The position numbers and the translations under genes were made by a program. From positions 25,450 to 89,449 of the IMG/VR virus record IMGVR_UViG_3300025853_000048: a stretch of 64,000 nt of DNA; one strand, written 5' to 3'. Shown piece by piece: positions 12,001 to 38,037 of this stretch. The notes beneath the pieces are model-generated. The model had not been told where the DNA came from. It made no database searches and saw nothing but the letters and a program-made list of their open reading frames with translations. This DNA is from a virus. Each line of letters opens with the position of its first letter. The first letter of the stretch is position 1.

Positions 12001-15000
12001 GCCTTGGCGTTGGCAACTGCTGTACGGAATTCTGCCGTCTTATCGTCCACCTGGGCTTCCTCCACCACCTCAGGGTTCCGCATCTCATCCAATCGGCGCT
12101 GAAAATCCTGGCGATTGCCAACTAAGTGCGTCGAGTAGTTGCGCTTGTAAGCATCAAACAGTTGATCGTCATCAGCCTTGCCGTCGAAACTCTCCTGCAG
12201 GAAGGTGATGTTCTTGGCGAAGGTTTCGGGGGTGATGGGAACTTGCTTGGATTTCGGCTTCTTGGTGCTGGGCGCTTTACTCCCGGATTCCTCGCCCTTC
12301 CACTCATCGACCACCTTCTGCCCAGCCTCGGTAATCTCATACTCTCCGGCCTCGTTAAGCCTCGCGTAAGCCTCCGGGCGCTCTTTGGTGGTGTTGGTGA
12401 GGAAAGATAGATATCGCTTGCCAGCGGGCCTGTCCGTGTCTCCTGCGAGGTTTAGCAGGGCATCAAACATGGATGCGCTGGAAATACCTTTCGGAAACTT
12501 CGGTTTTGCGCCTTTCGCGGCGTGAATTTCGATATTTTCAGCCAACGACGGCGTTTTGGCGTCCAGATCCGGACCTGCCGCCTGCCGCATCTGGTTGAGA
12601 CGTTTGACAATCCGTTTCCTCTGATCGATGGCCATTGCCTTGGTTTCCGGATCCTTGATCTCGGTAATCATCCGGGATAGGTTTTGCGCCACCTGCTTGA
12701 GCCACCTGATAATGACCGGCATCATGTATTCGATACCCTCAATCTCTGTAACCCGACCGGCAAACTCCTTGTCCTGGATGATCATCCGGTGGAATTCGTG
12801 AGCGCCTAGAAAGTCTCCTTTTTTCAGACTGGAGAAACGATCAACCGGTTCATGCCCCAGGTACTGTTTCAGATATGTGATAATTTCCGGCGTACCCTTT
12901 GCTACCTGATCGATAAATTCATCGCTAATATCCAACGACTCGCTCCGAGCAACTTCCTGATCGATTATTTCGACAGCTTCTAGGGCATCTTCCCGGTATT
13001 GTTTCGGGACGCCTTTTAGACGGGAAATAAAGTATGATCGCTCCACTTCTCGTTTGATATCTTCAGGCAAGGCTCGCCATAACTCTTTAGCCTCTCTTAT
13101 CGACAACTCCTCTAGTGCCGCCTGGTGAATCAACTCCTCACTGAGTAATACAGCAATCCTTTCCTGGGAGTAACCGCTCCTGGCCAGCCACCCCAGATCG
13201 ACCTTCAGGGCAACATCGCCATTGGGTAACTTGCGGACGCTCATCGCCGTGCCGGAAGCGACTTCCTCAAGGCCAACTTGTTGAATTTCTTCAATCGGTC
13301 CGTAAACAATACCCCCTGGAAACGCACGCTCGCCATACTTGGCAACTTCCAACTCGATCACCTCTGCAACTTTTTCAGCCTTTTTCTGGTAAGTGGGAGG
13401 GATTTCATCGATTGCCACGGCAAGATCATCGGTACCCTGGTCATTCGGCACGATGTAATCCCTTTTCTCCGGCAACGGATCAGGAACCTTGTTGCCTTTA
13501 GGTTTCGGGTAGGCCTGCTTCTGCTTCGGACGCTTGCGCTCGGTCGGCTCCTTGCGCTTCGGCTTGATCACCGATTCAATGCCGTCAGTCAGTTCTCTCA
13601 GTGCCGGGTTTTCATCCAGGTTGTTGTAAATCCAGTTCAGGAACTTCTTCAGGTAGCGGCGGAAATGAGGCGATGAGGTGCGCCCGTTAAACTTGCCCTC
13701 GATAATTGCACGGGTTGCTTCGGAAACCTTCTTTGCCGGGGTCAACCCATCGAATCCATTGTATTCCTTGAGCATCAGCCCGTGCAAAACTTTGTCGTAC
13801 TGCGGGGAACGCGGGTCGAACGCCTTGGATGCGGCATCGATCAGCTCCGGATTATCGGCGGCAAACACCCGTTGCGCGGCGTGAACTCCCTCGTGGAAGA
13901 TGGTTCGCTCGATCTGGGCAACGGAGCGACGCTTGTTCTGGTCTTCGAAGATCACAATCGCCGGATTGCCGTCGCTATCAGTGACGGTTACGCCAGTTCC
14001 CTTGCGGGATAGGCTCCTACCGAGCAATGCTTCGCCGTGCGCCTTGTTCTGCGCCACGATAACGCGTACCCCGCTGGCCTTCAGGGTGTCCAGCATCGCC
14101 GACTGGTTGCCGATCGCCCGGTTGATCTTTTTGATACTGGATAAGGTTTCATCCTTTTGTGGGGCAGGAGTCTTCGGCTTCTTGGCTTTCGGTTTCTTTT
14201 TTGCAGGTGCCGCTACCTGGTCAGCCCTGACCAAGGTGATATCGTAATCATAGGGATTGATCGTTTCATCCCCCGGAATCTGGGGGGCTACCTTGCGCAA
14301 CGCTTCTTTGGAAGAAGAGGCGATGGAGGTGGGCACAGTAAACGTTTGATCACCGGTGAGAGATGAGACACTCCAGTAATCACCACCCCCATCGCTGCTT
14401 AGAGATTCACCACCGGTCGAAACTTCTTCCGGTGATGCTATTGATGAGTTTGCGTCATCAGCATCTTGTTCCAAAGTAGAGTCCGCAACTGTTTTTTCTT
14501 CTTCCTCGGTCGATTTAGGGTCAGTTTCAGGTTCTGCTTCAACTTCTTGCTCTGCGGGAGCGGAAAACTTGGCCTTGGCCGTCTCGTAATCCATCGTGAG
14601 GAACGCTTCTGCCGCTTCAGGGAATATTGCCTTTGCCTGATCATGCGCTTCTTCGGTGATAACTGGGACCGGTCCTTCCGGGCTATCAACTATTTCATAA
14701 ACTGGTGAGTTCAGGTGTCCAACGGGAGACTTGAGTGCAGGATGGTCAAGGTTCACCGCTTTGTTGTCTGCCCCTATCCTGACCGCTGCCGCTGCCTGAA
14801 GGGTGGCTATGTAGTTAGCCATCGCCCTTTTGTAGGCTCCCGCATTACCCTCCGGGTCAGCTTCCTCTGCCTGCTTTGCCTCAGTTGCCGCGTCTTTGGC
14901 CGCGTTGATAGCGCCTTCAATCTCGGCGGAAAAGCCTGCCGCCATTTTGACGCTCTGGCGAATCTGGGTCAACCGGTCAGCTTCGATTTCCTCGATCCTC

Positions 15001-18000
15001 TCCACAACCGCCTTTTTGCCTTCGATGTCGTCCTCTGCCTTGCCCTGGTATTCCTGCAAGAGTTTATCGATCTCTGCTTCTGCGTCCCGGGAACCGTAAG
15101 AAGCAATATCGCCAACCAGTCTTTGCGCGGCTTCGATTTCCTCCTGCTGGATAAATTCATCGGGTTCCACATACTCATTGATCCGGTCAAACACATCTCC
15201 CGGGTCGCCCGACAATTCGCTTTTAAGCTGCTCTCCGGAAAGCATGGCCTGCTTGACCATTTCAGCAATGCTTCTTGCTCGCTCATTGATTTGTTGTTCA
15301 CGAATTTGCGGAGCATCCCCGATGATGCTGCTAATCCCGGACAATCCAGCAGCCCCGGAACCAATGGCACCACCAATCCCGGCACCCATCCATACCCCGT
15401 CGATGACTTGATCCCAATTAACTCTTCCGTCATCCATGAATCCCTGGATGGCCTCTTCTTTTCCTTCATCAAAGCCTTCCTCGATTATTTCAGGGAAACC
15501 ATGCTTGGCGAATCCTTCGGCTGCTGAATCCCAAAACTCCGGTGACCGAACATAGTTAAGAAATTTGGCATCCACATCCGGGTTGTTTTTCGCCCATTTG
15601 GCAAATGCTGGCATATCCAAGTCGCCAGCCTTGCGCTTGAATTTATTCAGGACGGCCAGTTCACCAGTCGCTCCAAATGCGCCAACAATGGCCGATGAAG
15701 TCAACCCTTGTACTACTCCAACCCCAACCGCATGATCCAGCGCATCCGCGTGGGACATCCCTTTTTCAATGCCCTGCTTGTAGCTTCGACTCACGGCAAT
15801 ACCGAAACTTGCCGATCCCGCTTCACCCATTGCTGTCGCAAAACCAGACCTGGCTGCCCATTTCGAAACTTGTTTCTCAATCTGTTCTTCGGCGGCATCT
15901 TTGCCTATCTTCTTGGTCAGTTCGCTGCCTATCTTTTTCTTGAGTACTTTTTTCCCAACGGAACTTACCGCTGTGGCTGCACCCAATGAAAAAATCATGG
16001 AGGGGAGTTCTGAAAACACTTCTGAGACAAATTCGTTGGCCACTTGTGATACACCACCTCCGATTGCCCCTGACTGGACAAGTGCAGAAAATTCTTCACT
16101 TGTTTCGTTTGCTCCCGTTAACCACTCCTCTTTGCCTGTGATACCCCCGGCAACCCCTCTCAGGATCATTTCGAATTCGCCCACAGCACTGCCAGCAGCA
16201 GCGAGAACCCATTGGATGGCTTTCTCTGAAAGGTTCTGCTGATCCAGGTAGGCTTCAATCAATTCTGCCTCGCTCTCGTGCGGGTTATTCTGCTCGAATT
16301 TAAGGAAACCTGTCAACCCTATGGGAACATCTGTGTTGACGCCCCGTACGGAGATTTTGCGTAAAGCTTCTGCCACCTTGGGTGCTGAAATGTTTCGAGC
16401 GTGTTCAAATTCTGCCTTTGCTTGCTCTATCTTCTCAGGGTCATCAGTAAGCTTGGATAACTCGGCATCTAGGGCAGGGGTATCGAAAAGGTTTAACGAT
16501 CCCACATTTAGTTGCAAATTTCCCGATTGCAGTTCCCGGACCTTCTGCCCCGGCAACCATCCGGAATGCCTTTCTTGCAAATCGCGAACGATGCGATCTT
16601 TCTGAGTTCTGGGGATGTTGTATTTCTCAGCTAGTTCTTCCGCGTGCTTGATCCGCAGTTCGTGCCGTTTACGGGCTTTTTCCTGCTCTTTCTCATCATC
16701 CCGGGGTTTAAAGTTATCAACCAGTGCTTTTGCCGTCCGCTTGACTTCCTCCTGCCAGTCTTTAGCTTCCTTTTGGTCGTAATTGCCTTCCGTTTCTCTA
16801 AATTTCTTGTAGAGATCCTTGGTGAAATCCTGCTGGTTGGAGATTGATTTTTGGAATCTTTCCCAATCTTTCTTGCTGGAAAGCTTACGCCGCTCATCCA
16901 GTTTTGATTGCTCGGCTTTGGTTTGCTTGTCAAACTTGGTTAGCTTTTCGTTTGCCTGCTTCTGTCTTGCCTTGAGCTCTTCCTGCTTCTGGAGTTGGAA
17001 ATCGCGAATCATCGCGTTCTTTTTATCCAGGTCTGCCTGATCTGTGGCTTTGCCTAAAGAATCGGCAAATTCGGAGACTTCCTTTTTTGCTTCGGCCCCG
17101 AAAGCTTCCAACTCCTCGTTGACTGTTTTCAGCATAGCTTCCCGCTTGCTGTTCCGACCAAGGGCGAATTCGTTAATATTCTTCAGGTTCTCATCCTGCT
17201 GAATATACATTTCCCGCAAATCGTCAGCCAGGTTGCTGGATAAAGGATCTTTTCTCAGATTGGCAATCGCCTTGTCTCGTTGCTCCTCAACCTGATCAAT
17301 TTTGAGTTGTTCTTTGGTCTTCGATCTACGCTCATTTTGCGCCTTGATCTCGCCTTTCTCCCGCTCGAGTCTCGCTTTGTTGCGCTCGATCTGGGCAGTT
17401 ACTTTCTGCCGCTTCGCCGCCAGTTGTGCATTTTCAGCATCCAGTTGTGCCGCCGATCTGCGCTTGACAGCAGTTTCACGCTCCTCTTTTTCCAGTGCCG
17501 CCAACTCAGCCTCCGCAGCTTCGTTTACTGCTGCCTCCCGCTCTCGCAAGTCGGCCATCCTGGCGGCAGTTTCAGCCCTTCCCGCTTTCTCTATTTCCTT
17601 GCGGTCGGTTTCGGTTGTGGCGCCATCCCGGCGAGTACGGAAAATATCGTCCTCAATCTCCCAGGCTTCTCCCTTTAGTTTCTGGTAACTGGGCTTTAAT
17701 TTACGATACGCTTCCAGCTTTTCCTTTAGTCGGATGACATCCGGGGTGTATTCCTCAGGAGTCCACTCGCCATAGCCTTCATCTTGCCATTCCGCTTCGG
17801 AGTTTTCGTGATCATCCTCATCGTAGACAACCCCAAACTCATTGTACCCGAGTCGTTCAAGTTTGGTCGCCACTTCATCCTTGCGTAGGCGCAACTCCTC
17901 CAACGACGCCTTGCTGGCTTCCTCGGCCTTTTTCCGCTGCTCTTCCTGGGCTTTTTCTGCCTCTAGTTTCTTCCATTCCTTGTCAGTATGTAACCACCTG

Positions 18001-18473
18001 GAGACTCCATCCACGTCCTTATAGGTTTCGCGCCCGATCTTCTTTGCCTTGCGCTCAAATTCAATGTTGTAGTGGTCTTTCTCGCGCTTCGCCTTTGCTT
18101 TGGCTTCATCTTCTGCAGCTTTGCGTTTGGCTTCCTCTGCCTTTGTTTTAGCCGCCTGTTTTGACGCCTGTTCGCGCTTCTTGTCTTCCTGCTGCTTGTA
18201 CCATAGCGAATCATCTGCTGCGTCCTGGCGCTGTTCTCGCGCTATCTCATCCTGGTAACCGCTCCTGACAAATGAGTTTTGCAGGTCGGAATAGCGAAAC
18301 GGCATCCCGGAGGCTGCTTTGCCGCTCGGTCTGGTCGTAGAGTTTCCGAACAGGGGTTTATGCCCCGTCGTGGATGCTGGTTGGATCGGCTCGGTATCAG
18401 GTTGAGATTGCTGATCAAATTTGTCGTCATTGATCAGTCGTTTCTTCGGCTTGTCGTCGTAGTCGTTGCCCAT
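1..18473 (-). CDS. Giant polyvalent protein (>6,157 aa, 3' end beyond window); probable virion-injected/ejection protein
   Basis: ATG at 18473 (MGNDYDDKPKKRLINDD...). The same frame is still open at position 3 (...PDKQREQDRKRKDQNSNKT). The track lists no long minus ORF here, consistent with no in-frame stop. Coiled-coil N-terminus followed by many polyvalent-protein domains. Confidence 0.93.
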   Translation of the reverse strand, partial: MGNDYDDKPKKRLINDDKFDQQSQPDTEPIQPASTTGHKPLFGNSTTRPSGKAASGMPFRYSDLQNSFVRSGYQDEIAREQRQDAADDSLWYKQQEDKKREQASKQAAKTKAEEAKRKAAEDEAKAKAKREKDHYNIEFERKAKKIGRETYKDVDGVSRWLHTDKEWKKLEAEKAQEEQRKKAEEASKASLEELRLRKDEVATKLERLGYNEFGVVYDEDDHENSEAEWQDEGYGEWTPEEYTPDVIRLKEKLEAYRKLKPSYQKLKGEAWEIEDDIFRTRRDGATTETDRKEIEKAGRAETAARMADLREREAAVNEAAEAELAALEKEERETAVKRRSAAQLDAENAQLAAKRQKVTAQIERNKARLEREKGEIKAQNERRSKTKEQLKIDQVEEQRDKAIANLRKDPLSSNLADDLREMYIQQDENLKNINEFALGRNSKREAMLKTVNEELEAFGAEAKKEVSEFADSLGKATDQADLDKKNAMIRDFQLQKQEELKARQKQANEKLTKFDKQTKAEQSKLDERRKLSSKKDWERFQKSISNQQDFTKDLYKKFRETEGNYDQKEAKDWQEEVKRTAKALVDNFKPRDDEKEQEKARKRHELRIKHAEELAEKYNIPRTQKDRIVRDLQERHSGWLPGQKVRELQSGNLQLNVGSLNLFDTPALDAELSKLTDDPEKIEQAKAEFEHARNISAPKVAEALRKISVRGVNTDVPIGLTGFLKFEQNNPHESEAELIEAYLDQQNLSEKAIQWVLAAAGSAVGEFEMILRGVAGGITGKEEWLTGANETSEEFSALVQSGAIGGGVSQVANEFVSEVFSELPSMIFSLGAATAVSSVGKKVLKKKIGSELTKKIGKDAAEEQIEKQVSKWAARSGFATAMGEAGSASFGIAVSRSYKQGIEKGMSHADALDHAVGVGVVQGLTSSAIVGAFGATGELAVLNKFKRKAGDLDMPAFAKWAKNNPDVDAKFLNYVRSPEFWDSAAEGFAKHGFPEIIEEGFDEGKEEAIQGFMDDGRVNWDQVIDGVWMGAGIGGAIGSGAAGLSGISSIIGDAPQIREQQINERARSIAEMVKQAMLSGEQLKSELSGDPGDVFDRINEYVEPDEFIQQEEIEAAQRLVGDIASYGSRDAEAEIDKLLQEYQGKAEDDIEGKKAVVERIEEIEADRLTQIRQSVKMAAGFSAEIEGAINAAKDAATEAKQAEEADPEGNAGAYKRAMANYIATLQAAAAVRIGADNKAVNLDHPALKSPVGHLNSPVYEIVDSPEGPVPVITEEAHDQAKAIFPEAAEAFLTMDYETAKAKFSAPAEQEVEAEPETDPKSTEEEEKTVADSTLEQDADDANSSIASPEEVSTGGESLSSDGGGDYWSVSSLTGDQTFTVPTSIASSSKEALRKVAPQIPGDETINPYDYDITLVRADQVAAPAKKKPKAKKPKTPAPQKDETLSSIKKINRAIGNQSAMLDTLKASGVRVIVAQNKAHGEALLGRSLSRKGTGVTVTDSDGNPAIVIFEDQNKRRSVAQIERTIFHEGVHAAQRVFAADNPELIDAASKAFDPRSPQYDKVLHGLMLKEYNGFDGLTPAKKVSEATRAIIEGKFNGRTSSPHFRRYLKKFLNWIYNNLDENPALRELTDGIESVIKPKRKEPTERKRPKQKQAYPKPKGNKVPDPLPEKRDYIVPNDQGTDDLAVAIDEIPPTYQKKAEKVAEVIELEVAKYGERAFPGGIVYGPIEEIQQVGLEEVASGTAMSVRKLPNGDVALKVDLGWLARSGYSQERIAVLLSEELIHQAALEELSIREAKELWRALPEDIKREVERSYFISRLKGVPKQYREDALEAVEIIDQEVARSESLDISDEFIDQVAKGTPEIITYLKQYLGHEPVDRFSSLKKGDFLGAHEFHRMIIQDKEFAGRVTEIEGIEYMMPVIIRWLKQVAQNLSRMITEIKDPETKAMAIDQRKRIVKRLNQMRQAAGPDLDAKTPSLAENIEIHAAKGAKPKFPKGISSASMFDALLNLAGDTDRPAGKRYLSFLTNTTKERPEAYARLNEAGEYEITEAGQKVVDEWKGEESGSKAPSTKKPKSKQVPITPETFAKNITFLQESFDGKADDDQLFDAYKRNYSTHLVGNRQDFQRRLDEMRNPEVVEEAQVDDKTAEFRTAVANAKAKMREMDKSKTVPKAVMKSMRASFNSLIKTVFADEAKGITGRSINHIDASTAEVQRKFFIQLQTAYRHAENDETRELINEMFRDAGFIEIGAEGEVVSADPGLHAGESNVVRGEKVRVIRPGWNMHDGVGEFQPMKAIVEPVEAATTAGKKGVVAETVPPTTTGIAKASSQAESSYTPPRNLGKKEVSDQDKRETARKKLQEQAGGKTPQTADLNDPKSVNAAVREMVTFLETGDRENDAALGMVTAHFLNNVASLKPNRQKAVFQRLKRMTDKKEGVLTQYAGETAAIPEVMQDTLETAKAMAAAGKSAKEIRAVTGWFPGRYDGKMRWEIPDKGASFKDGVSDSATVYNVVDSRGNEVSGYDDQAGADAEVTKLNKLDSGYTVRPVQSDYTRATFVSDILDHPELYEAYPDVGNVDLIITIGPDVKDEGGEFQPYENRESEGLFDLQPQITVRAKNKEDALSTLIHEIQHWIQEEEGFAKGGNFQNNIRNYKETVDDLNRYVMYLNEEMSLASKEGNKERYDYLMGERSEYVARIQEIEGPDGIGAAEKGFADYQRTAGEIEARDTQGRLTYDAKVRALVEPYDIENIAKEEAIILFSKDEHGDPQGFYDRSQNLIGLIQGKANESTIMHEVAHMSRELLKGTDLGSELNAAYGIATDEWTDDQEEVFARHVERYMRDGDFPDGLPDRLKAALAKVAEVIRGIYAQLAGSPIHNDIPAEVRKVLDEIMLLGEEKATAPEPKPDLEVQPGMTGRERAELLEPQLPEDPDMEWIATSGLKHGSRTITKIGWNPVTGAMRVVYESDRNQTYSYVNIPPTLMQNLRQKQANRNEAIERRNAILAELDPTTRAKAEDTLKGVEKSIWDSVKNLPIIAEAKAKLDSIMDKMANLFRRNKTSPEELKRQAKNNIKALEEEYHHQISKPDLVGRLHKALDFLPEDMRQQLIIEEVAIIQSNSIGSYFYDAVSRTDAYYDENWMNQRKAAGRDFQPDIEGMPAREAEVLIDYLSSLDATPRDKGAIEDALKKQRPGEKASQLTYLLDMIDQGYVPTDEKGKTRLALPGESKQIAQAKRNLNKAPAALAEYLTGGKQAAPTPKPKTDANPDDFASGDLDLDTLSKPKRKKAKAKDASSTAGTITDTLSKKKFTPKQQQEYERISAGLTELSRKLGLAKTDDEINALTDLAGALIAGAQKLRKEAGLSEAEFSIEALAQVPDKVRKARGRDTLKQVDEERDREYLAAVEAGDLNTVERLIDEAAKEAGYNIGPAYHGTSHAENIEVFNDFSYFTDDWWNADGYASGERVYDVYLKMETPLVIDAKGEKWDELSSEHGSSTQDVVRNFDDTKYDGIIFEDIGDSWMDDAEAGSSTVYVTTNPNQIKSADPVTYDKDGEVIPLSQRFDSDKDSILYQFAGENAEVPQFMADSLETAKAMAAAGRDSETIRAATGWFPGKYDGKMRWEIPDEGAKIYDEVLDLLKNGDTEEVELRDLLDHTALFEAYPEIGKIPVSLKDGIDAVYINIGGKERISIGAQGRGLSSLLHEIQHAIQHREGFARGSSPLEHRQGMQMADEDFDRLNKEVSRKFMVTKYFESAEENGTTPVEELRKRHELRIKHAEELAEKYKRRSAAQLDAENAQLAAKKYSRLADREIDPRELELTEMMSDIDEAREWYQHEKEKYEKEREKRIFAPDRDYRRTAGEIEARDVQSRANLTAEQRAAIAPYSSENIAPEDAILLQRGGKGRAIKGFYRRADNLIGLIEGKADAITLLHEIIHLDRELLKGTEIGNRLNEFYGEATDDWSPESEEKFAEHAEEYFRRGKFPQGASDKIKEAFRVVKEIARNLYAHLKGELPNEIRDIFDEIIIAGSGDHMERRSVNDIKAGNSKEYVAERDKARAATTRERQKKAKSEDQQRAERHAEAIERDKQEAPRRKKLAGLRRKYAKAKTSEMKLELIEQAEQAGFSKSDIDDNYDPSQGTYSVVDKDLDELRQKFKPINVYTGLLKGKDDEVLQRLVHEGEESLDEADKQYLIDEGFAVYEGGETQESFPTENGIADYPNRPAVDAEIAKVATRLSDNPGSMVSLGELVPIVMDQGFSKREVEDGLYRIYQRGEGNLTLHDQQSYISDSEREFALKLGVDDMHLFAIGRRAKKPSDKELRQYEEFHRKVDGRNIPMGPATNEEPGTKNEERGSLLPLDWQGKPLAQDPQDTTEKTVDIRHAEELKKWINGEDLSPEEYDQLLDLRILVVDMGDADTPSQLQRSKEGEADGLMINPALEKFILGDRSQETMEVVSNELKLLKTGYSIHAAKTGKSERPDGLNAAQVRAMMAIGEGKKGHPGSAKVLANNGIIYKKKFEKDGTQELTAEGRKKFEAQKRALEGEPPKAETRKPKAKKKVAEEKPDTLTKSKRTTDSAGNTKLIAWDKHSQSDEQWKRGVEYAEKQLPEWKNTARTTGVGSHYVEGLNRDLDKVNSMLNMVREKVRNFSSSANVRPNKNLFFWVGVKDYLDNVESKLLADISAESERYNALPVESQRIEDAVQFWEEKERRDGKSYQDKINEIKGETGKDFEDAEEKRLGEGAAIFAKSAPGKKLELWSDNPRKALPKSASEVAHRKRLGDLFSITSRYNELKTDKAKSELLKKTGGWLSIYEVEAAIESYKDRLVNITGVDLSEDSKRHPGPHPGVTKYPNVGEVIYYDPTGSSIFRSVEVTNDLGNGIFSGTIVEPGPKELIGQIVEMDLSEVAVQTPKKKTAAKKTDPIALAEQAIETYAGSLKLQKEAGRIADLSHQEASKDEGLKGAFFSRVAEVMFALRRTQVGDVVSVRNDKDRVIEELLGYSEASIGKEGVEAQDFISKVFMVDKGQKREADWDDVNAPNKLAPITEEQVQRLEEFAQTKSKKTAKAGKHPGNTGVFDLDESVFEEEGSIKLSEDGFRASIRDEKDVEVGYVTAGEYEGKVRIHKSTLQGIHQGKKLGIKAYQAIIDKAHEDGKDVMSDNYVSEPAYRVYEALSRRGYDVDLSNAQKGTKSGRTVYTPINYKKPAVTVRKPNTGQKSPADGAKSPDVADIDGTISTGTPNGAKATFRYRVVDATDLDGMIEAEINADQTRQRSGNRSSMEQIERIASSIDPDFLLDSRKANDGAPVVSGGSVIAGNGRSSGIRLAYERGNAMAYETAVRDFAQEEGINLAGVKQPVLIREVIEFTSGDQRSFVVESNPKQGGLGESVSEQALLDAEAIGYSTLSGLRFNVNNQLTADSLRAVATKLEQSARGITRTQSGEFDQAEASRRVMAAFVTRLVEKAGKDSADVTAILESDGGKRIVSAVAKVAPELAKLDDDLSLAGDVVEAILSLRSGMHAVEQGNFRNLSDWLTNRKAELVSEPLSEIGQLLLDDLVTSTKLKKDRSSNEFPFDETLREYLTFAQREQKNRDDASQTEDIFNDERQDQSPETYFAKINRIAGFPETGAAEKTLAESTKEGEEGELSQQSPFQKLSDDFDAIEAEIKIAVSRSKAITNEQRKEARKKLVTLSKQMLTKTVPDAIRELETLGTEEAAKLEEELFLNAAELTASAVGLIPGPVGMVADAIGTGIDIKQRDPVGALLGIASAFELDLIAKPVKFKRGLEAMSETIKALKSMKTSLDSVENVKTIVAATRKDKTNQTEINDNADMFQVAGVEEDFSLVGEQTVETEFEAPDTRTDAEKDAEVGQEQLFDEKPKTKKQIFEDRKKALDAAFLSGRQKFLDAVTTDEQRQEEIDIIQNETKRQSGLIAKSDIDLDLAVAVVETYGEKGWDTPLFVLGLKNTPRNKQYWTAGVQRVSEPYDKGEYFEEIGFDPTQSIQSQVGLPESAGKTMWVDLKRQRGREGFGLKWGKTEMVEIKGMPQNARIAEPNNSFWEAWRTDKAGMKSQGYHVRKENGEWQVLDTSVTENISVKDAVGRDIPAVDYFKDGRKRVYEVRERKGSKFVNVLIGSIGDNPTTEWVPMLPNAEIEVFKPGMTPDKQREQDRKRKDQNSNKT
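2080..2820 (-). other. ddrB-like ParB domain within giant protein
   Basis: ATFRYRVVDATDL...QTRQR...MEQIERIASSIDPDFLLDSRKANDGAPVV...VIAGNGR...PVLIREV matches the ddrB-ParB motif pattern. Confidence 0.8.
2990..3240 (-). other. GNAT-like acetyltransferase domain within giant protein
   Basis: VGYVTAGEYEGKVRIHKSTLQGIHQGKKLGIKAYQAIIDKAHEDG...SD..VSEPAYRVYEAL resembles the GNAT acetyl-CoA-binding loop and C-terminal helix. Confidence 0.6.
7098..7205. repeat. 108-bp fusion of two exact repeats (copies of 17412-17466 and 16618-16673)
   Basis: 7098-7152 is identical to 17412-17466 (55 bp) and 7150-7205 is identical to 16618-16673 (56 bp). The two overlap at TTG and are in the same reading frame. Confidence 0.9.
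7340..7780 (-). other. LPD23 + HEIQH metallopeptidase-like module (copy 2) within giant protein
   Basis: AATGWFPGKYDGKMRWEIPDEG ... LLHEIQHAIQHREGFARG. Confidence 0.8.
7790..8300 (-). other. ADP-ribosyltransferase (ART-PolyVal) domain within giant protein
   Basis: AYHGT...FSYFTDD...YA...VYDVYLKMETP...YDGIIF...NPNQIKSADPVTYDKDGEVIPLSQRF. Confidence 0.75.
10540..11160 (-). other. LPD23 + HEIQH metallopeptidase-like module (copy 1) within giant protein
   Basis: AVTGWFPGRYDGKMRWEIPDKG...LDHPELYEAYPD...TLIHEIQHWIQEEEGFAKG. Confidence 0.8.
11580..11800 (-). other. GrpE-like beta domain within giant protein
   Basis: GFIEIGAEGEVVSADPGLHAGESNVVRGEKVRVIRPGW...MKAIVE resembles the GrpE C-terminal GE.FDP..H...V...G pattern. 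Confidence 0.5.
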
Positions 18474-22063: not shown

Positions 22064-22411
22064 TTATTTCACCTGGTAAAAGAAAACTCCCTCCCGGGAA
22101 TCAAGATTGATTTCGCCGATGAACACCATGTTTTGAAGCAGGGTGATCCACCATTCCAGGGATCGTTTGCGGTTTCGATAGAACTTGTTGAACTCAGTGG
22201 CGGTTTTCTCTCTGTGGAAATATTGCTTTAATTCTGCTACCTCTTCCGAGAAGGCCTTGATTTCCTTGCGGATCTCCTTCTTGCGTCGGGATATGCTTAG
22301 CTCTGCTGTTGAGTTCTTCATGATTGTGGTGGTTTTTGTCTTGACTGGGTGGGTTGCGGTTCTGTTAAAATGATGTTGGAGCGCGAGGTCGCCGAGGGCT
22401 CCCCGGCTCAA
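22064..22411 (-). CDS. Hypothetical protein (likely start ATG at 22321)
   Basis: ORF from track; the N-terminal TTG extension lies in an att-like region. Confidence 0.6.
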   Translation of the reverse strand: MSRGALGDLALQHHFNRTATHPVKTKTTTIMKNSTAELSISRRKKEIRKEIKAFSEEVAELKQYFHREKTATEFNKFYRNRKRSLEWWITLLQNMVFIGEINLDSREGVFFYQVK

Positions 22412-22428
22412 CTAATTACTGTTCTCCT
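22404..22428 (+). mobile_element. Left boundary of first cassette (GTTCTCCT core; attI/attG-like site or decayed attC right arm)
   Basis: GTTCTCCT at 22421-22428 is the exact reverse complement of R'' AGGAGAAC (23228-23235). No matching left arm is visible. Confidence 0.65.
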
Positions 22429-23290
22429 GAGATAACTGCTCCTTAAGTTCCATCAGTTCATCAATGATTTCATCCTGGCGCCAAGGGTCAATTTTTTCCC
22501 ATTCCATTTTCGTGTCCAAGTCCTCTCTACCACAGGAATCCACGCGCATCATGCAGTTCAGAATCTCTGCCGCCACCTGCGGCACTATCGCGTTTCCGAG
22601 TCCTCTAAGTCGGTCCAATGCTCGGGGTACCCCATCAAAATCTCGACAGAAACAGGATCCCATTTCAATTTGGCGTATTCCGTTCCCCTCAATTTGTTTT
22701 GGCTCCCACCTGCTTCCTGGACTGTTCCGTTCCATTTTTCGCTTCCCGCGCACGGCGTGGGCAAGAATCCAGACTCTATCTCTCCGATGTTGCGCCCCGA
22801 TGGCACAAGCCGGAATAATGATTGCCTGCGCGGAGTAGCCAATCCCCTCCAAGTCAGAAAGCACTTCATCGAGGCCCATCGTGATGTGACCAGCAACATT
22901 TTCACACAATGCCCAACGGGGTCGGAGGTGTCCAAGAATTCGCAATAGTTCCGGCCAGAGGTGACGGTCATCTTCCGCGCCTCTTCGCTTCCCGGCGCTA
23001 CTGAAAGGTTGGCAAGGGTATCCTCCGGTAATAAGCTCAATTGTTCCATAGTTATCAGGGTCTAAAGTTTTTACGTTGTCGTGGATTGGTACGCCGGGGA
23101 AGTTCTTCGCCAGCACCTTTTGCGCCCATGGGTCTACCTCGCAGAACCCCACGGTTTCGATTCCTCCGACCATGCGAGCTGCCAGGGCGAAACCACCGAT
23201 ACCGGAGAACAGGTCGAGATGCCGCAAAGGAGAACAAGACGCAGCAGGTAATGCTTCATCCCGTTGGTCTGTTCGCATACCTGTGCTCAT
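22412..23290 (-). CDS. C5-cytosine DNA methyltransferase, alpha (large) subunit; cassette gene
   Basis: Motif I DLFSGIGG, motif IV GYPCQPFS, motif VI ENV, motif VIII RDRVW, motif X LGNAIVP. Motif IX is absent from this frame. Confidence 0.92.
   Translation of the reverse strand: MSTGMRTDQRDEALPAASCSPLRHLDLFSGIGGFALAARMVGGIETVGFCEVDPWAQKVLAKNFPGVPIHDNVKTLDPDNYGTIELITGGYPCQPFSSAGKRRGAEDDRHLWPELLRILGHLRPRWALCENVAGHITMGLDEVLSDLEGIGYSAQAIIIPACAIGAQHRRDRVWILAHAVRGKRKMERNSPGSRWEPKQIEGNGIRQIEMGSCFCRDFDGVPRALDRLRGLGNAIVPQVAAEILNCMMRVDSCGREDLDTKMEWEKIDPWRQDEIIDELMELKEQLSQENSN
22585..23049 (-). CDS. Overlapping alternative-frame beta subunit of the C5 MTase (M.EcoHK31I-type)
   Basis: Fully nested in the MTase gene. 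Carries LPTP and motif-IX-like WDPVSVEILMGYPEHWT. Confidence 0.75.
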   Translation of the reverse strand: MEQLSLLPEDTLANLSVAPGSEEARKMTVTSGRNYCEFLDTSDPVGHCVKMLLVTSRWASMKCFLTWRGLATPRRQSLFRLVPSGRNIGEIESGFLPTPCAGSEKWNGTVQEAGGSQNKLRGTEYAKLKWDPVSVEILMGYPEHWTDLEDSETR

Positions 23291-23300
23291 ACGTTCTGCT
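23228..23300 (+). mobile_element. attC site 1
   Basis: AGGAGAAC-AAGAC-GCA(G)CAGG...CCTGTGC-TCATAC-GTTCTGCT: R'', 5-nt spacer, L'' with extra base, L', 6-nt spacer, R'. Confidence 0.9.
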
Positions 23301-23496
23301 AGTAAATCCCCATCATCATCTCATCCTCTCCTCCAGCACTTTCCACGAAGGAAATAGGGGCATTAGGATTCCACTTTTCCGCTTTCTCTTGCTCTGATCC
23401 ATCCGTCTTCCCAGACGTTGGCGATGATATTTTCGGCGTCTCCTTCTCCGAGTCCGTATTCGAGGAGGATGTTTCTGATTCTGTGGTAGTATTCAT
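23299..23496 (-). CDS. Small acidic ORF overlapping 23363-23698, ending at attC1 R'
   Basis: 65-aa ORF; TAG abuts the cassette boundary. May be spurious. Confidence 0.3.
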   Translation of the reverse strand: MNTTTESETSSSNTDSEKETPKISSPTSGKTDGSEQEKAEKWNPNAPISFVESAGGEDEMMMGIY

Positions 23497-23698
23497 TGTC
23501 TGTAAATCCGAGCCAGTCGCGACCCCAAGGGGATCCTGTGCAATCTGTTCCCGAGAAGTCTATCTTGATATTGATGTCCACAACCCCGTCAGCAGAACAA
23601 GACGCATCAGCCAATGACTGTTCTTTAGGTTTTTTATCGTCTGATTCCGTTGGTTTATCGTTTTGATCACTCATCGTTTTTTGTGGTTGCGCCGTCAT
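23363..23698 (-). CDS. Hypothetical protein; cassette gene
   Basis: Start codon lies inside attC2 and the frame reads through R'' as ...ASCSA. Confidence 0.65.
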   Translation of the reverse strand: MTAQPQKTMSDQNDKPTESDDKKPKEQSLADASCSADGVVDINIKIDFSGTDCTGSPWGRDWLGFTDNEYYHRIRNILLEYGLGEGDAENIIANVWEDGWIRARESGKVES

Positions 23699-23720
23699 GG
23701 CTGTGCTTCAGCGTTCTCTC
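23591..23720 (+). mobile_element. attC site 2
   Basis: AGCAGAAC-AAGAC-GCA(T)CAGC-CAATGAC...GTCATG-GCTGTGC-TTCAGC-GTTCTCTC. Confidence 0.9.
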
Positions 23721-23721
23721 T

Positions 23722-24546
23722 TTAAAATAACTCCGGTTGAGGTGGGGCGTGGTGCTCGGCTTTCGGCTCCGAGAAGTCGAGGACTTCCTGAAGCATCCTT
23801 TGGGCTGCTATCTCGCAGTATTTCTCCTGCATCTCGACCCCCACGCATTTAACCCCGGCATCTTTACAGGCTCTTAACGTGGTCCCTGATCCCATCCACG
23901 GATCGAGAGCAGTTTTTACATCTCCCGCCTGTTGGAGTGCCCACACCATTACGTCCAGAGGTTTCTGGGTTGGATGGTCCCGCTTTTCCGATCCTTTTCG
24001 AGCCATTCCATTCCACAGATGTTTTTTTATTCGCATCGCTCCATTGAGATTGTTCCACGCCATCTCACCATCAGCGAAGTTTCCATTCATTTCCTTATCC
24101 CAGACTAGCGGCCCTTTGCACGGCGGCAGATCGTAGTAATTCCCCCCGAATATGATTTGTTTTTCGCAGATATTCCGCGCCAGTTCCATTACCCATCTTG
24201 GGACTGGTTCTTTATCCCAGTCGGTCAGTTCGTAGGTTCGCTTCGCAACTCTCCGATGTCCGCTCCCTACTATATTCCCGCTTGCTTTGTGCATCGCTTT
24301 ATCGGCTCCGATACCATAAGGTGGATCACACAGAAGCAGATCAAACCTCCCTAGATGCGGCATTATCTTCCCACAGTCGCCGTGATAGATCGTCACATAA
24401 TCGTCCTGGTAGTAGGGACTGTACAGTGTACAGTCATCCGCTGTACACTGTACAGTCGGCTCGTCTGGAGAGAACAAGACGGTGGAGCCAATGCTATCCT
24501 CTATGTCGTTTTTCGTGGTTTTCATCGTCGTTCGTTCGGATCGCAT
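23722..24546 (-). CDS. Amino (N6-adenine/N4-cytosine) DNA methyltransferase, beta class; cassette gene
   Basis: IYHGDC, DPPY, HPTQKP, LDPWMGSGTT motifs. Confidence 0.92.
   Translation of the reverse strand: MRSERTTMKTTKNDIEDSIGSTVLFSPDEPTVQCTADDCTLYSPYYQDDYVTIYHGDCGKIMPHLGRFDLLLCDPPYGIGADKAMHKASGNIVGSGHRRVAKRTYELTDWDKEPVPRWVMELARNICEKQIIFGGNYYDLPPCKGPLVWDKEMNGNFADGEMAWNNLNGAMRIKKHLWNGMARKGSEKRDHPTQKPLDVMVWALQQAGDVKTALDPWMGSGTTLRACKDAGVKCVGVEMQEKYCEIAAQRMLQEVLDFSEPKAEHHAPPQPELF
24417..24457. repeat. Perfect 17-bp inverted repeat containing four TGTACA sites
   Basis: GACTGTACAGTGTACAG-TCATCCG-CTGTACACTGTACAGTC. Confidence 0.9.
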
Positions 24547-24568
24547 GGCTCACCTTTAGCGTTCTAAT
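24468..24568 (+). mobile_element. attC site 3
   Basis: GAGAGAAC-AAGAC-GGT(G)GAGC-CAATGC...GCATG-GCTCACC-TTTAGC-GTTCTAAT. Confidence 0.9.
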
Positions 24569-25019
24569 TCAGTGCCTCTGGGTAACAAATATACTCGCCC
24601 AGCTTCTCCATACGATACTCCCAAATACCGCCTTCCACCCGCTTCTTATGGACATCGTAGCGACTGCCTAAGACCTTGTGGACCTTATCCTTGCGGAGAT
24701 CTCGCAACCTGGCTGATATACCAGCCGCGGACTCTGGCGGATAGCCTGCTTCCTGGGCGATGTCCCCTAAGGTGCGCCACTTGCCATCGGTCATCACCTC
24801 GTAAACGGCGGTCAGTTGTTTGCCTAGTCGTTTCGTGTCCTCCGCTTCGATATTCGGACCATCAAAATTGAACTCATCTTGCTCTATCATCTCTCTCTCT
24901 TGTCTTTTTAGGTTGTAGATACGGTTTTCCCACTTTTCGGCCCGCTTGGAATCGCCCTTCTCCAGGGCGTTTTCCATGTAGATACCGGCCTTGCAAATTC
25001 TCTCGTCGATATCGGTCAT
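24564..25019 (-). CDS. Winged-helix DNA-binding protein
   Basis: VYEVMTDGKWRTLGDIAQEAG...ISARLRDLRK...WEYR. Confidence 0.7.
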   Translation of the reverse strand: MTDIDERICKAGIYMENALEKGDSKRAEKWENRIYNLKRQEREMIEQDEFNFDGPNIEAEDTKRLGKQLTAVYEVMTDGKWRTLGDIAQEAGYPPESAAGISARLRDLRKDKVHKVLGSRYDVHKKRVEGGIWEYRMEKLGEYICYPEALN

Positions 25020-25746: not shown

Positions 25747-26040
25747 TCATTTTCGGCCCTCTTCAGCAACCCGGACTGCGTTGCGGACCAGGCTGGTGAA
25801 TATTGACAACTGGGTCTTGGGGGGTGCGCTCCTGTGTCCCCGTTCCCGTGCCATGTGGAAATAGCCGCAGAATTCGCATTTGTAGACAATCAGCGGGGTT
25901 CCGGATTTCTTCTCTGATTGCGCTTTAGCGGTCAGTGCGAGTTTGCGCCTTTTGTAAGCGTGCTTGCCGCATTTTCGGGGTAGTTTGGCGACCTTTTCGT
26001 GTGCTCTGCGTTGCCTAGGTTTCTGTGTTCTTTTGCTCAT
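25747..26040 (-). CDS. Zn-finger protein (CGK...Y.C..C..FH)
   Basis: CGKHAY...VYKCEFCGYFHM. Confidence 0.7.
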   Translation of the reverse strand: MSKRTQKPRQRRAHEKVAKLPRKCGKHAYKRRKLALTAKAQSEKKSGTPLIVYKCEFCGYFHMARERGHRSAPPKTQLSIFTSLVRNAVRVAEEGRK

Positions 26041-27082
26041 CTTTTTCGCTCAATACGTTGGTTTCAAAAGCCCCGCTCATATTGGTGTGGTTGTAGGTCT
26101 GGTTCGTTATATCCAAACCGCTATGCCCTAGTTTGTAACTGATCTCCTCCAGCGTCATGCCTTTCTGATAGGCGTGCGTGGCGACCGAGTGACGCAACAT
26201 GTGCGGTGTGCATTTCGGCAACTGGTGTGCCTTGCAAAGTTTGTTCAGAAAATCATTTACCCAGTGCCGGGAGTAGCCCACCCATTGCCCATGTACCTTG
26301 TGCGAGAAGATCGGTTCAGTCTCATCGTCGCGGCCTTTGTCCTGGATGTGCTTTTCGATCCTGACAGCGATCCTGTACGGGATCTCCACTCTGCGTGTCT
26401 TCTTGCCCTTGGTGTTCTCTGATCGAAAAATGAAATAATGCTGCCCTGTGGCACCGTCTCTGCGGAAGTCCTGCGCCTGGAGTGATATGAATTCCGTTAC
26501 CCTGGCACCAACTGAGTAGAGCGTGTAGAACGCCAACCATCGGATCTGATCGGCTGTTCCTGCCGTGCCTTTGTCCTTGCGTTCTTCGAGCACGTCCAGC
26601 CATCGCTCCACCTCCGGTTCACTCAGAACCTTGTCTTCGATGATTCTATCGGGCCGCTGCAGTTCGATTTCAACTCCGACGTTATACTGTAGATAACCCA
26701 GTCTTTGCGCGTATGACATCAGGGATTTAATCGGATCAATGCGAGTGCGGATCGATGCGGGTTTGAGCGTCTGTCCGTTGGGTAACGTTTCCGCTTTGAC
26801 CTGATCGACGTATTCAGTCATGTCTGCCAGGGTGACGGTTCGTAATGGTTTTTCCCAGCCGATAAAATCTCGGAACTTGCGGATATTGAGCGCGTAAGTC
26901 TCCTGCGTGTTCTCCGATGGACGGGAGCGGATAAACATTTCGATTAGGTGATCGTCGTCCCGAGCTCCGGACATATCCGGTTTCGGCTGGTGCGGGTGGT
27001 CGATCGGGGTGCCGACTGCATACTGCTTCCGCTCTGCGATGTCGCCAGGTTCGGGGTCCAGGATTTCGAATTCTTCAGGCAT
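26015..27082 (-). CDS. Tyrosine recombinase (XerC/D-like, SAM-like N-domain); not an integron integrase
   Basis: GARVTE, TKGKK, HMLRHS, LGH, TNQTY catalytic set. Start trimmed to MPEEF. Confidence 0.9.
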   Translation of the reverse strand: MPEEFEILDPEPGDIAERKQYAVGTPIDHPHQPKPDMSGARDDDHLIEMFIRSRPSENTQETYALNIRKFRDFIGWEKPLRTVTLADMTEYVDQVKAETLPNGQTLKPASIRTRIDPIKSLMSYAQRLGYLQYNVGVEIELQRPDRIIEDKVLSEPEVERWLDVLEERKDKGTAGTADQIRWLAFYTLYSVGARVTEFISLQAQDFRRDGATGQHYFIFRSENTKGKKTRRVEIPYRIAVRIEKHIQDKGRDDETEPIFSHKVHGQWVGYSRHWVNDFLNKLCKAHQLPKCTPHMLRHSVATHAYQKGMTLEEISYKLGHSGLDITNQTYNHTNMSGAFETNVLSEKDEQKNTET

Positions 27083-27083
27083 T

Positions 27084-27476
27084 TTAAACTCTCTGCAATT
27101 CACCGGATAAAACATCGTGTTCAATACACGGATCAATAATTTCCCAGCCCAGTTCTCTTAAATCGTCCTGGACATCACACATTTCCGACCACGCTTCTTT
27201 TGGGTCTAGCTCGTAAGCATAGTCATATCGGAACCAGGGGCGACCACCTGATTCCCCGATCGTCACGTTGGAGCGAACGCTGATCAGTTCGGATAGGGAT
27301 TTCGGAGGGGGTTTCAGATCGCACATATTAAGAGCCTTGGAAATATTCTCGCCAATCTCTGCCAACTCCTTGGCGCGATCCTGATTGCCTTCTCTTGCCT
27401 CTTTATGACACCTGTGGACGATTTCGCGCAACAATTGCCCTACAGTTATCTCACTTAACAAATCTTCTTTATTCAT
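27084..27476 (-). CDS. Hypothetical protein
   Basis: 130-aa coupled ORF. Confidence 0.7.
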   Translation of the reverse strand: MNKEDLLSEITVGQLLREIVHRCHKEAREGNQDRAKELAEIGENISKALNMCDLKPPPKSLSELISVRSNVTIGESGGRPWFRYDYAYELDPKEAWSEMCDVQDDLRELGWEIIDPCIEHDVLSGELQRV

Positions 27477-36665: not shown

Positions 36666-37055
36666 CTAATATTGAATGTAGGATTTTCTCTGTTGCAGTA
36701 CGTCCACGTAGGAACGCATAATTTGCAGTTGTTTGCTCAAAAGCGACTTCACTTCATCCGCTTTCGGATGTCGTTTGTGTGGCTTTTCCTGCTTGATAAC
36801 TCGTTCCAGATCAAAGATTTCCTCTTTCATCCGGTTCTGTTCCGCGAAGATCTTTTTATCCGAGTTCTGGACGCGGCCTTTAGTGAACTCAACGCACGCT
36901 TTGCGCGAGTAATAGCGTATCCCGGGAGCGGGCGACGTGCCCTCCGGTATCAGTCCTTTTTTAACGTATCTCCTTAGCGATGAATAGCTTCTGTTTAGAA
37001 TAATCAGGGCTTCATCCTTGGTGATTTGATCAGTATCCCTCTCGTAATCAATCAT
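36666..37055 (-). CDS. HTH_17/MerR-like (excisionase-like) DNA-binding protein
   Basis: ITKDEALIILNRSYSSLRRYVKKGLIP...RYY. Confidence 0.7.
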   Translation of the reverse strand: MIDYERDTDQITKDEALIILNRSYSSLRRYVKKGLIPEGTSPAPGIRYYSRKACVEFTKGRVQNSDKKIFAEQNRMKEEIFDLERVIKQEKPHKRHPKADEVKSLLSKQLQIMRSYVDVLQQRKSYIQY

Positions 37056-37176
37056 AATTAACCATGTCCAGTGAAAAAACTAGAATGGTTGATAATGGGA
37101 GAGGGGATGATTGTCAAGTAATACTTATTATTTTTATAGCTAATCTATTAATTTAGCACGCGTTTTTCATCGTCTC

Positions 37177-37208
37177 TCGTTCGGATCGCATGGCTCACCT
37201 TTAGCGTT
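37177..37208 (+). mobile_element. Orphan attC right arm (L'-spacer-R'), identical to attC3
   Basis: 32-bp TCGTTCGGATCGCATGGCTCACCTTTAGCGTT identical to 24532-24563; no left arm. Confidence 0.8.
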
Positions 37209-38037
37209 ACGAATTCACTTTAACTTCTGCCCCCCATGATGCCACCAAATCTCGCCCTTTCTCAGTCAAGTCCGCGTAGATTTTGCGACGATCTAGGGTG
37301 TTGCCGAACCGATCCTTGGTGCCAATAACCCCCGCTGAAACCTTAATGATATAGCCATTTTCCAACAAGGTGTCCGTGATGCCCGTTGTCGCAGCAGTTG
37401 AGACATCCAGGAAAATTGTCAGGTCAGTCATCGATGCCAGACGATCGTAATTGCTGGCAATGAAATCGCAGTAAATGAGACTTTTGACCGTGTTGACCGA
37501 GCGCATCGCATTGGCGTCAACCAGGGTGATATCCAGGTGGATCGAAACATCAACAATCGTCCCGAGTCGCCTCGCGTTGTCTTTGCGGATCGTGTGGGGC
37601 GCGAACAGTTTACGCATCTTCTGAGCGTATTCTGACGTTCGCCAACCCGTCACCTCCATAATGTAATCATCCCCTCTGTCCCAATTTAAAGACGAAAAAT
37701 CAATCTGGTTTCCAAATATCCGGCGTTGTTCCCGAACATAGTTAACGGCTCGATTGTTCTCTTCGGCCAATACATCGTCGCCTTTTGACCAGTCAAGTTT
37801 CGTCCAATCCAGACCCGAGCTGACAGTTTCCGGTGCGTCCTCGTTACGCCAACGCGTGACGGTTGAAATAACAACGCCGGTTCGTCTGATAATGTCTTGG
37901 TTGGACTCCCGCTCCCAGTTGATCCCGGCTCGGGTTTTAGCGTAAAATTCTTTTGGTGGTCGGGGGTTACTAATACTCATCTCTTTCTTTATACCTTCTA
38001 TTTTTTTACTAACAAACTCAGTCAAGACCTCACCCAT
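37207..38037 (-). CDS. Multi-HTH protein with C-terminal MarR-like winged helix
   Basis: Three W....D..I/LA repeats, then MTDL...LDVSTAATTGITDTLLENGYI...DRRKIYADLTEKG. Confidence 0.7.
   Translation of the reverse strand: MGEVLTEFVSKKIEGIKKEMSISNPRPPKEFYAKTRAGINWERESNQDIIRRTGVVISTVTRWRNEDAPETVSSGLDWTKLDWSKGDDVLAEENNRAVNYVREQRRIFGNQIDFSSLNWDRGDDYIMEVTGWRTSEYAQKMRKLFAPHTIRKDNARRLGTIVDVSIHLDITLVDANAMRSVNTVKSLIYCDFIASNYDRLASMTDLTIFLDVSTAATTGITDTLLENGYIIKVSAGVIGTKDRFGNTLDRRKIYADLTEKGRDLVASWGAEVKVNS

Follow-up and report, generated by a model that had tools for sequence, protein, structure and literature searches.

A phage array of attC cassettes in which translation of each gene probably begins inside its own recombination site

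We analysed a stretch of 64,000 nucleotides (the window) from an uncultured freshwater phage, corresponding to positions 25,450 to 89,449 of IMG/VR record IMGVR_UViG_3300025853_000048, a record of 89,449 bases of which the window holds part. It contains a row of three hairpin sites, E1, E2 and E3, which adjoin the genes b3, b2 and b1, respectively, all on the minus strand. By their structure and by the logic of their flanking 7-mers, E1, E2 and E3 are real integron-type attC sites. We consider it likely, from sequence comparisons, that they belong to phage attC cassettes of reversed polarity in which translation of each gene starts inside its own hairpin; the sites very probably encode, to judge from their reading frames, the start codon and the first 10–30 amino acids of each gene. 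The components of the array are listed below. Gene starts are those of the longest open reading frames (ORFs) and were not taken from any annotation; position 1 of a site is the opening base, read on the minus (coding) strand, of the 7-mer ending in AAC (R′), and R″ is the 7-mer starting with GTT.

24469–24567, minus strand: attC site E3, 99 nt, R′ TTAGAAC, R″ GTTCTCT, spacer GTCTT; model score 82.9 bits; ATG 24546 in the stem and ATG 24525 in the loop; TAG of the upstream gene in R′.
23592–23719, minus strand: attC site E2, 128 nt, R′ AGAGAAC, R″ GTTCTGC; model score 79.4 bits; ATG 23698 in the stem and ATG 23674 in the loop.
23229–23299, minus strand: attC site E1, 71 nt, R′ GCAGAAC, R″ GTTCTCC; model score 66.6 bits; ATG 23290 in the spacer and ATG 23278 in the stem.
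23722–24546, minus strand: b1, N6/N4 DNA methyltransferase, 274 aa from the first ATG; residues 1–26 encoded by E3; core from SPYY (residue 44).
23363–23698, minus strand: b2, no known family, 111 aa; leader encoded by E2.
22412–23290, minus strand: b3, C5 cytosine DNA methyltransferase, 292 aa from the first ATG; Pfam match from residue 23; alternative TTG at codon 22.
22421–22427, minus strand: 7-mer GGAGAAC closing b3, exact complement of R″ of E1; endpoint of an 872-nt deletion in one metagenome contig.
22330–22420, minus strand: anchor after the last cassette, with a GTTGAGC...GCTCCAAC hairpin; gives b3 its final two codons and stop.

The hairpins are integron-type attC sites

Read on the coding strand, the sites share a single plan: a 7-mer ending in AAC, a G and five unpaired bases, a 12-bp stem, a loop of about 20–80 nt, a returning stem arm that includes two extra bases, the pentamer GTCTT, and a 7-mer starting with GTT. 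A second array on the same record, outside the window, adds three more sites and three cassettes, two of which carry N6/N4 methyltransferases and one an 84-aa ORF. The genes that the sites separate are mutually unrelated. At 71, 78, 99, 117, 119 and 128 nt, the six sites of the phage lie inside the attC range of 57–141 bp given in the pertinent part of a published account (PMC5027507).

An alignment of the six own sites with two from other contigs (n = 8) was used to examine covariation. Over these eight sites, 96.3% of the 136 cells defined by 17 proposed pairs are paired, and 11 of the 17 pairs show compensatory changes; none of 500 shuffles reached the observed values, and partners slid out of register paired at 32–52%. 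The DNA folding energy of the sites is not above that of shuffles (z −0.4 to −1.9), and support for the hairpins therefore comes from covariation, not from thermodynamics. The AAC and GTT triplets are invariant in all eight aligned sites. Two bases on the 3′ arm are unpaired, and the one distal to the core is a T in E1, E2 and E3.

The decisive attC feature is the cassette logic: the 7-mers are complementary across genes and not within hairpins. In all six own cassettes the 7-mer before the gene is the exact reverse complement, at 7 of 7 bases, of the 7-mer after the same gene: GTTCTCT/AGAGAAC, GTTCTGC/GCAGAAC and GTTCTCC/GGAGAAC in the window, and GTTCTGC/GCAGAAC, GTTATCT/AGATAAC and GTTATGC/GCATAAC in the second array. 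When the four variable core bases were compared in consecutive pairs from own and related arrays (n = 21), 13 pairs matched at 4/4, four at 3/4 and four at no more than 1/4; the same comparison within single hairpins gave a 4/4 match in only 1 of 30. Complementary cores are described as the standard test for a cassette in the relevant section of PMC4909258.

A covariance model built from the eight aligned sites found only these three sites in the window, plus a weak match at 37.2 kb. Of 80 viral loci picked because they carry a related methyltransferase, three contigs (L126, L128 and L187) yielded arrays, and 80 metagenome loci yielded 11 sites in six contigs, all on the methyltransferase strand. 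Other searches returned little. No Rfam family matches the sites, the sole match being a chance, miRNA-like one on a palindrome at 24419–24455; when viral contigs were scanned for exact patterns of the conserved arm, chance matches alone appeared (at least 119 single matches, and in another scan 3 without a hairpin); blastn against a phage collection recovered only conserved C5-methyltransferase cores, in Paenibacillus and other phages; and locus searches with single proteins (b1 and a recombinase) found no close relatives. With three sites within 1.3 kb, three more outside the window and no integron integrase (IntI), the array is by its sequence a CALIN, a cluster of attC sites lacking an integrase, which we take to mean at least two attC sites close together with no intI nearby.

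Start codons and open frames inside the sites

The original prediction placed the first ATG of all three genes inside attC, and this is where we found them: ATG 23290 is at position 10 of E1, in the unpaired spacer, and ATGs 23698 and 24546 are each at position 22, in the stems of E2 and E3. It had further placed backup ATGs in the loops, which holds for the second in-frame ATGs of E2 (23674, position 46) and E3 (24525, position 43) but not of E1 (23278, position 22), where the codon is in the stem. Database copies of b1, b2 and b3 all begin at the second ATG. Across the return-arm 11-mer CGTCTTGTTCT, which has exactly three occurrences in the window, the frames read ...AASCSP, ...DASCSA and ...TVLFSP, as had been described. 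With at most one mismatch allowed, the 11-mer has 4 matches versus 1.45 expected, a count reached by 6 of 100 shuffles. In the gene frames the GTT core would be read here as CS or LF, and in relatives also as LL, LV or RLV.

From position 14 to the site end, the six own sites contain 2 stop codons in the gene frame, both before the ATG, and 11 and 10 in the other two frames. For a wider comparison, 28 related matches to the model with E < 0.01 were collected, of which 5 with no downstream ORF of 60 codons and 1 at a contig end were dropped, and an open in-site start was defined as an ATG at least 30 nt before the site end. Such an ATG, with its frame open to the end of the site, is present in the gene frame of 23 of 28 sites (6/6 own and 17/22 related) and in 9 of 56 control frames (Fisher p = 5e-9).

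The b1 methyltransferase

Alignment of 41 b1 relatives places the beginning of the conserved core at (L)PxPYY, in which P44 and Y46 hardly vary. In-frame ATG, GTG or TTG codons upstream of SPYY occur in b1 only at positions 22, 43 and 91 of E3, all of them in the site, and in the b1 paralogue outside the window PYY comes directly after the GTT 7-mer, with no ATG, GTG or TTG between. Because none of these codons lies between site and conserved core, the b1 start can lie outside the site only if a rare start codon is used. A start at the GTG of VTIYHGDC was also considered and was ruled out by the near invariance of the upstream PYY.

Related loci show several arrangements. The first in-frame ATG is within 5 codons of the core, typically as MKPYY, in 67 of 144 evaluable loci, and a further 36 have no in-frame ATG upstream. 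At six related loci PYY follows 1–14 nt after an attC site that contains an in-frame ATG; in five of these the ATG is in the loop, behind an A-rich or GGAGG-like stretch, and at L208 it is in the stem. Two more leader-bearing relatives with such hairpins were seen by eye and had been missed by the model. Between b1 and its paralogue there is an in-frame 27-nt indel that amounts to one 3′ arm, and the 12 codons before it include 4 synonymous and 4 non-synonymous codon differences. In the predicted structure of b1, residues 1–36 have a predicted local distance difference test score (pLDDT) below 50 and the fold begins near residue 40; on this model the leader looks like a disordered tail.

The palindrome at 24419–24455, in the b1 leader downstream of E3, is a perfect inverted repeat of 15 + 7 + 15 nt, rich in TGTACA. 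The loop stem of the attC that precedes the paralogue is homologous to this repeat, and b1 thus seems to carry a relic of an older site. Positions 24417 and 24457, on either side of the repeat, are where many metagenome contigs stop.

Leaders of b2 and b3

The sole relative of b2, P0242, is identical to it from LADASCS onward except for one residue. Its leader of 20 residues is unrelated to that of b2 and equal in length, with the ATG at the matching distance. Sequence variants were examined in Logan contigs of four freshwater metagenomes (X5, X6, X7 and X9), aligned at 85% likeness; in the X9/X6 variant, 9 of 9 differences over 23438–23576 fall on third positions of the 111-aa frame of b2.

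Among 120 listed homologues of b3, 117 have the DLFSG motif, and 76 of these carry leaders of at least 20 residues that end in arm-type motifs (RLV, SCS, CSAL), with 27 starting within 8 residues of the motif. These starts are choices made by gene callers and hence show only that the frames are open. The closest homologue among the matches listed shares ...LPAASCSPLRHLDLF with b3, behind a different loop part.

Cassette polarity and boundaries

According to the parts of Nivina 2016 that concern the folded site, the bottom strand, which is the one recombined, bears the AAC and the extrahelical bases on opposite arms (PMC5027507), is cut between A and C, and has a conserved T as its furthest extrahelical base (PMC5027507). 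In the phage sites the extra bases are on the coding strand, on the 3′ arm, opposite the AAC of the 5′ arm, which by the rule given there (PMC5027507) makes the coding strand the recombining strand. If the coding strand recombines, the hairpin belongs to the gene downstream and the cassette carries its own start region. By that rule the cassette would comprise C + hairpin + gene + xxxxAA, an order opposite to that in bacterial cassettes.

The population data agree in part with a hairpin that belongs to the downstream gene, as far as aligned contigs can indicate. One X9 contig joins 22420 to 23293; the absent 872 nt correspond exactly to E1 (minus its first 7-mer) and b3, GTTCT is shared by both ends, and a b2-like gene then abuts the anchor. 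An X5 contig retains E1 and b3 but departs from the window sequence at 23297, and a further position at which X5 contigs end is 24561, in the AAC core (R′) of E3. The earlier proposal that each cassette carries its own start region is supported by the extrahelical-base rule and by one natural deletion variant. Joints within b3 at 22783–23157, which fall on conserved methyltransferase motifs at high depth, were taken as other organisms and set aside.

Stop codons, coupling and transcription

The gene that precedes the array is as follows.

24564–25019, minus strand: 151-aa gene upstream of the array; stop TAG inside R′ of E3.

Its stop, TAG 24564–66, lies in the 7-mer TTAGAAC, 17 nt before ATG 24546; the b1 stop, TAA 23722–24, is 1 nt before AGAGAAC and 23 nt before ATG 23698; and the b3 stop, TAG 22412–14, is 6 nt after GGAGAAC, in the anchor, which consequently supplies two codons and the stop. 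These three positions agree with the original prediction that upstream stops sit on or beside the core. The stop assigned there to the gene upstream of E1, TAG 23299–301, turned out to end an overlapping 65-aa frame (23299–23496), whereas the 111-aa ORF of b2 stops at TAA 23363–65, 57 nt before the 7-mer GCAGAAC and 73 nt before ATG 23290. Docking of a cassette just after a stop codon is consequently seen at two of the three junctions, the exception being b2/E1. Within 23299–23362, the 57-nt stretch between the b2 stop and the E1 7-mer, 6 of 9 variant differences fall on third positions of the 65-aa frame, and a mini-ORF or another frame may be in use there.

In all six own sites the spacer after AAC contains a TGA or TAA, one of which ends the 84-aa ORF of the second array. 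A neighbour's stop codon often lies in the core of classical cassettes as well, as noted in part of PMC4909258. No promoter-like sites were found in the hairpins (5.4 kb scanned; 4 found versus 4.5 expected), which fits read-through transcription.

The region at 24582–24850 has no cover in X5, X6 and X7, though b1–b3 are covered, and low cover in X9. The gene upstream of E3 may differ between phage variants.

A model for expression of the cassettes and the evidence that weighs against it

The reading we prefer can be set out as follows. The coding strand would be the one that is folded and cut, its 5′ arm bearing the AAC and its 3′ arm the extra bases. The whole array is probably transcribed from an upstream promoter. 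Translation would start at an ATG within the hairpin, in stem or loop, and proceed through the 3′ arm, the spacer and the GTT core, which would be read in whichever frame the gene needs, as CS from TGT TCT (cGT CTT gtt) or as LF. Such read-through would place a leader of 10–30 residues, predicted to be disordered, ahead of the enzyme core. Because the upstream gene usually stops in or beside the AAC core, a ribosome terminating there could unfold the hairpin and give access to the next start, and translational coupling by hairpin opening can reasonably be proposed.

A bolder version, which we regard as possible but rather doubtful, would have one hairpin serve three codes, as DNA recombination site, mRNA gate and protein leader, in a cassette type of the phage's own. 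The stem would hide the start until the ribosome finishing the upstream cassette opens it, and cassette order would then set expression; the N-terminal leader would be disposable, its sequence dictated by the needs of the recombinase; and since the recombining strand would be the non-template strand, transcription could expose the site and so link shuffling to expression.

Several observations weigh against translation from starts within the sites or against the cassette boundaries proposed here. The gene frame was picked by the longest downstream ORF and was overridden twice, in favour of the methyltransferase frame at L213 430–551 and of the 84-aa ORF frame at L120 3297–3374. In five of the 22 related sites the gene frame is closed by a late stop and the gene starts shortly downstream of the site, which makes the in-site start frequent, not obligatory. 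The sites have predicted mRNA folds of −19 to −40 kcal/mol, in which the position-22 ATGs of E2 and E3 are paired; the loop ATGs 23674 and 24525 are free. A clear Shine-Dalgarno match precedes just 2 of the 6 own ATGs; most genes of the phage are also without one (it is present in only 15 of 82 long ORFs), and its rarity means that it cannot discriminate between starts here. The own cores (GCAGAAC, AGAGAAC, TTAGAAC, GGAGAAC and AGATAAC; GTTCTCC, GTTCTGC, GTTCTCT, GTTATCT and GTTATGC) are off the consensus RYYYAAC/GTTRRRY, which some relatives fit, e.g. with GCCTAAC in L128 and L226. Among the population data, the X9 joint is a single contig whose short side is only 25 nt, at 85% likeness, and one X7 contig matches the window without a difference across b2 and E1 as far as 23230, in the GTT core at the end of R″, adjoining b3, where it diverges. 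The X7 break could mark the cassette boundary of the opposite polarity or result from homologous exchange within the conserved arm.

Alternative explanations

The hairpins might be attC sites with untranslated leaders, the genes starting at TTG or GTG just past the GTT core or, in b1, at a rare CTG. Such starts are available: an in-frame TTG 2 nt after E1 would give b3 the N-terminus MRHLDLFSG, canonical and the commonest of its family, b2 has an in-frame GTG 11 nt after E2, and in L128 an ATG occupies the last base of the site, directly before PFAPYY. The 5 of 22 related sites with a clear start after the site belong here too, and purine-rich, T-poor loops would by themselves lower the frequency of stops. 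Against this, the control frames of the same sites have 5 times more stops and an open ATG frame in 9/56 versus 23/28 cases, b1 and its paralogue have no common start between site and PYY, and both the in-frame 27-nt indel and the length-keeping leader of P0242 point to a constraint on the frame. We therefore judge untranslated leaders unlikely for the array. The condition named beforehand as fatal to in-site starts, true starts downstream of R″, finds nothing in b1 but the rare codon; a downstream start may be used in b2 (GTG) and b3 (TTG). Of the dual-coded site as first proposed, the attC identity, the own start region and the frames kept open are supported.

We also considered the classical polarity, in which the hairpin would belong to the upstream gene, the crossover would be at the G/TT by the downstream gene, and starts and leaders would come from the neighbour, to be changed at every cassette reshuffle. 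Complementary 7-mers fit either boundary, the X7 contig breaks beside b3 as this arrangement would require, and in a phage with no integron integrase the strand rule for IntI need not apply. The extra bases, on the other hand, sit across from the AAC, on the other arm of the folded coding strand; X9 deletes E1 together with b3 and keeps the anchor, X5 keeps E1 and b3 behind a different upstream sequence, and the X5 contig ends at 24561 likewise fall at R′ of E3. Moreover, the array opens with a full hairpin and closes with xxxxAAC and a non-attC anchor, which is a canonical array read on the bottom strand, and classical polarity strikes us as improbable. The remaining explanation, that the repeats are regulatory hairpins acting at the RNA level or by protein binding, for example as translational operators of the methyltransferase genes, draws on the facts that covariation cannot tell DNA from RNA, that the mRNA folds well, and that DNA folding energies are no better than those of shuffles (z −0.4 to −1.9). 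Regulatory hairpins would leave unexplained why exact complementary 7-mers flank genes and not hairpins, why the presence/absence variant ends in a shared GTTCT, and why the genes between sites are unrelated; the same architecture recurs in arrays of other viral and metagenome contigs, and the Rfam search matched the sites to no family. We give this explanation very little credence.

Relation to known systems

The sites resemble bacterial integron attC sites in being imperfect hairpins with AAC/GTT cores, a 5–6 nt unpaired spacer, two extra bases on one arm and a variable loop, and the array resembles integron cassettes in that complementary cores enclose one gene and unrelated, promoterless genes stand in a row. 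Unlike in bacterial cassettes, the gene is here on the recombining (bottom) strand with the hairpin 5′ of the gene; unlike in bacterial integrons, the start codon and 10–30 codons appear to be inside the site, and the cores are xxAGAAC/GTTCTxx, not RYYYAAC/GTTRRRY. In place of the IntI of a complete integron there are two Xer-like recombinases.

In class 1 integrons a short ORF in attI1 boosts translation of the cassettes, and attC hairpins hinder ribosomes; there the site is between genes and acts on reinitiation, whereas here it is inside the frame of its own gene. In RNA phages and in operons, a start buried in a stem is freed once translation of the upstream gene terminates a few bases from it. 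The corresponding stop-to-ATG distances here are 17, 23 and 73 nt, and coupling is proposed by analogy.

Phage attC clusters with methyltransferases have already been published; the layout with the start inside attC was not found in those accounts. Qi, Rajabal, Ghaly, Tetu and Gillings (2023) described CALINs in phage genomes (PMC9892861), and the parts of their text concerned with cargo and boundaries report five DNA methyltransferases and hairpins with inverted GTT at array boundaries (PMC9892861). The array described here is like theirs, as presented there, in being a phage attC array without intI and with methyltransferase cargo (PMC9892861). Start codons and reversed gene polarity go unmentioned in the main text of that paper, supplements aside, in the portions on which we draw (PMC9892861), and a full-text literature search found no description of starts inside the attC sites of phage cassettes.

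Provided that the leaders are translated, a structure-specific recombination site doubles as coding sequence and translation start, a clear natural case of overlapping codes, and the evolution of site and protein would be mutually limited, with the GTT core read as CS, LF, LL or LV according to frame. Gene callers disagree on the starts of such genes, and tools that expect attC downstream of genes may misplace the boundaries of phage cassettes. For the phages, the arrangement would allow anti-restriction methyltransferases to be traded as compact, nearly fully coding units.

Recombinases, anchors and a half site

Two further features of the window bear on the array.

26015–27136, minus strand: Xer-like tyrosine recombinase, 1.4 kb upstream of the array.
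37162–37212, minus strand: half attC site, with the 5′ arm and the first part of an E3-like loop and without a 3′ arm; TAA 37207–09 in R′.

The recombinase at 26015–27136 scores 46.3 bits on the integron-integrase model TIGR02249 (cut-off 265); among solved structures its best relatives are XerC-like and XerD. By model score no integron integrase is present in the record, and this protein is a candidate recombinase for the array, not, by its score, an integron integrase. A second tyrosine recombinase is found at 56163–57338 on the minus strand, with a PF00589 match at 56214–56771 (29.7 bits).

The anchors that end the two arrays, at 22330–22420 and at L120 1340–1460 (record 12339–12459), are homologous, with 77% identity. 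Each is an attC-like hairpin, GTTGAGC...GCTCCAAC, with a far core of TTTAAC/TATAAC instead of GTT. By position, the anchor would correspond to the attI site of a bacterial integron.

Over about 45 nt, counted from the AAC, the sequence at 37162–37212 is nearly identical to E3; beyond that it continues as unrelated, AT-rich sequence with no return arm. TAA 37207–09 is inside TCGTAAC, as noted in the original prediction, which had counted this locus among the attC sites; a full site was ruled out by the weak model score (15.4 bits, E 0.46) and the absent 3′ arm, leaving an E3-like hairpin of which just the 5′ half is present, perhaps as a relic or through aberrant recombination. The half site lies right after the stop of the gene at 37207–38037 and 19 nt before a MerR-like/crAss001_48-like gene (36666–37055). 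Elsewhere in the window, a single open frame of more than 6,150 codons occupies 3–18473 on the minus strand and runs off the window edge.

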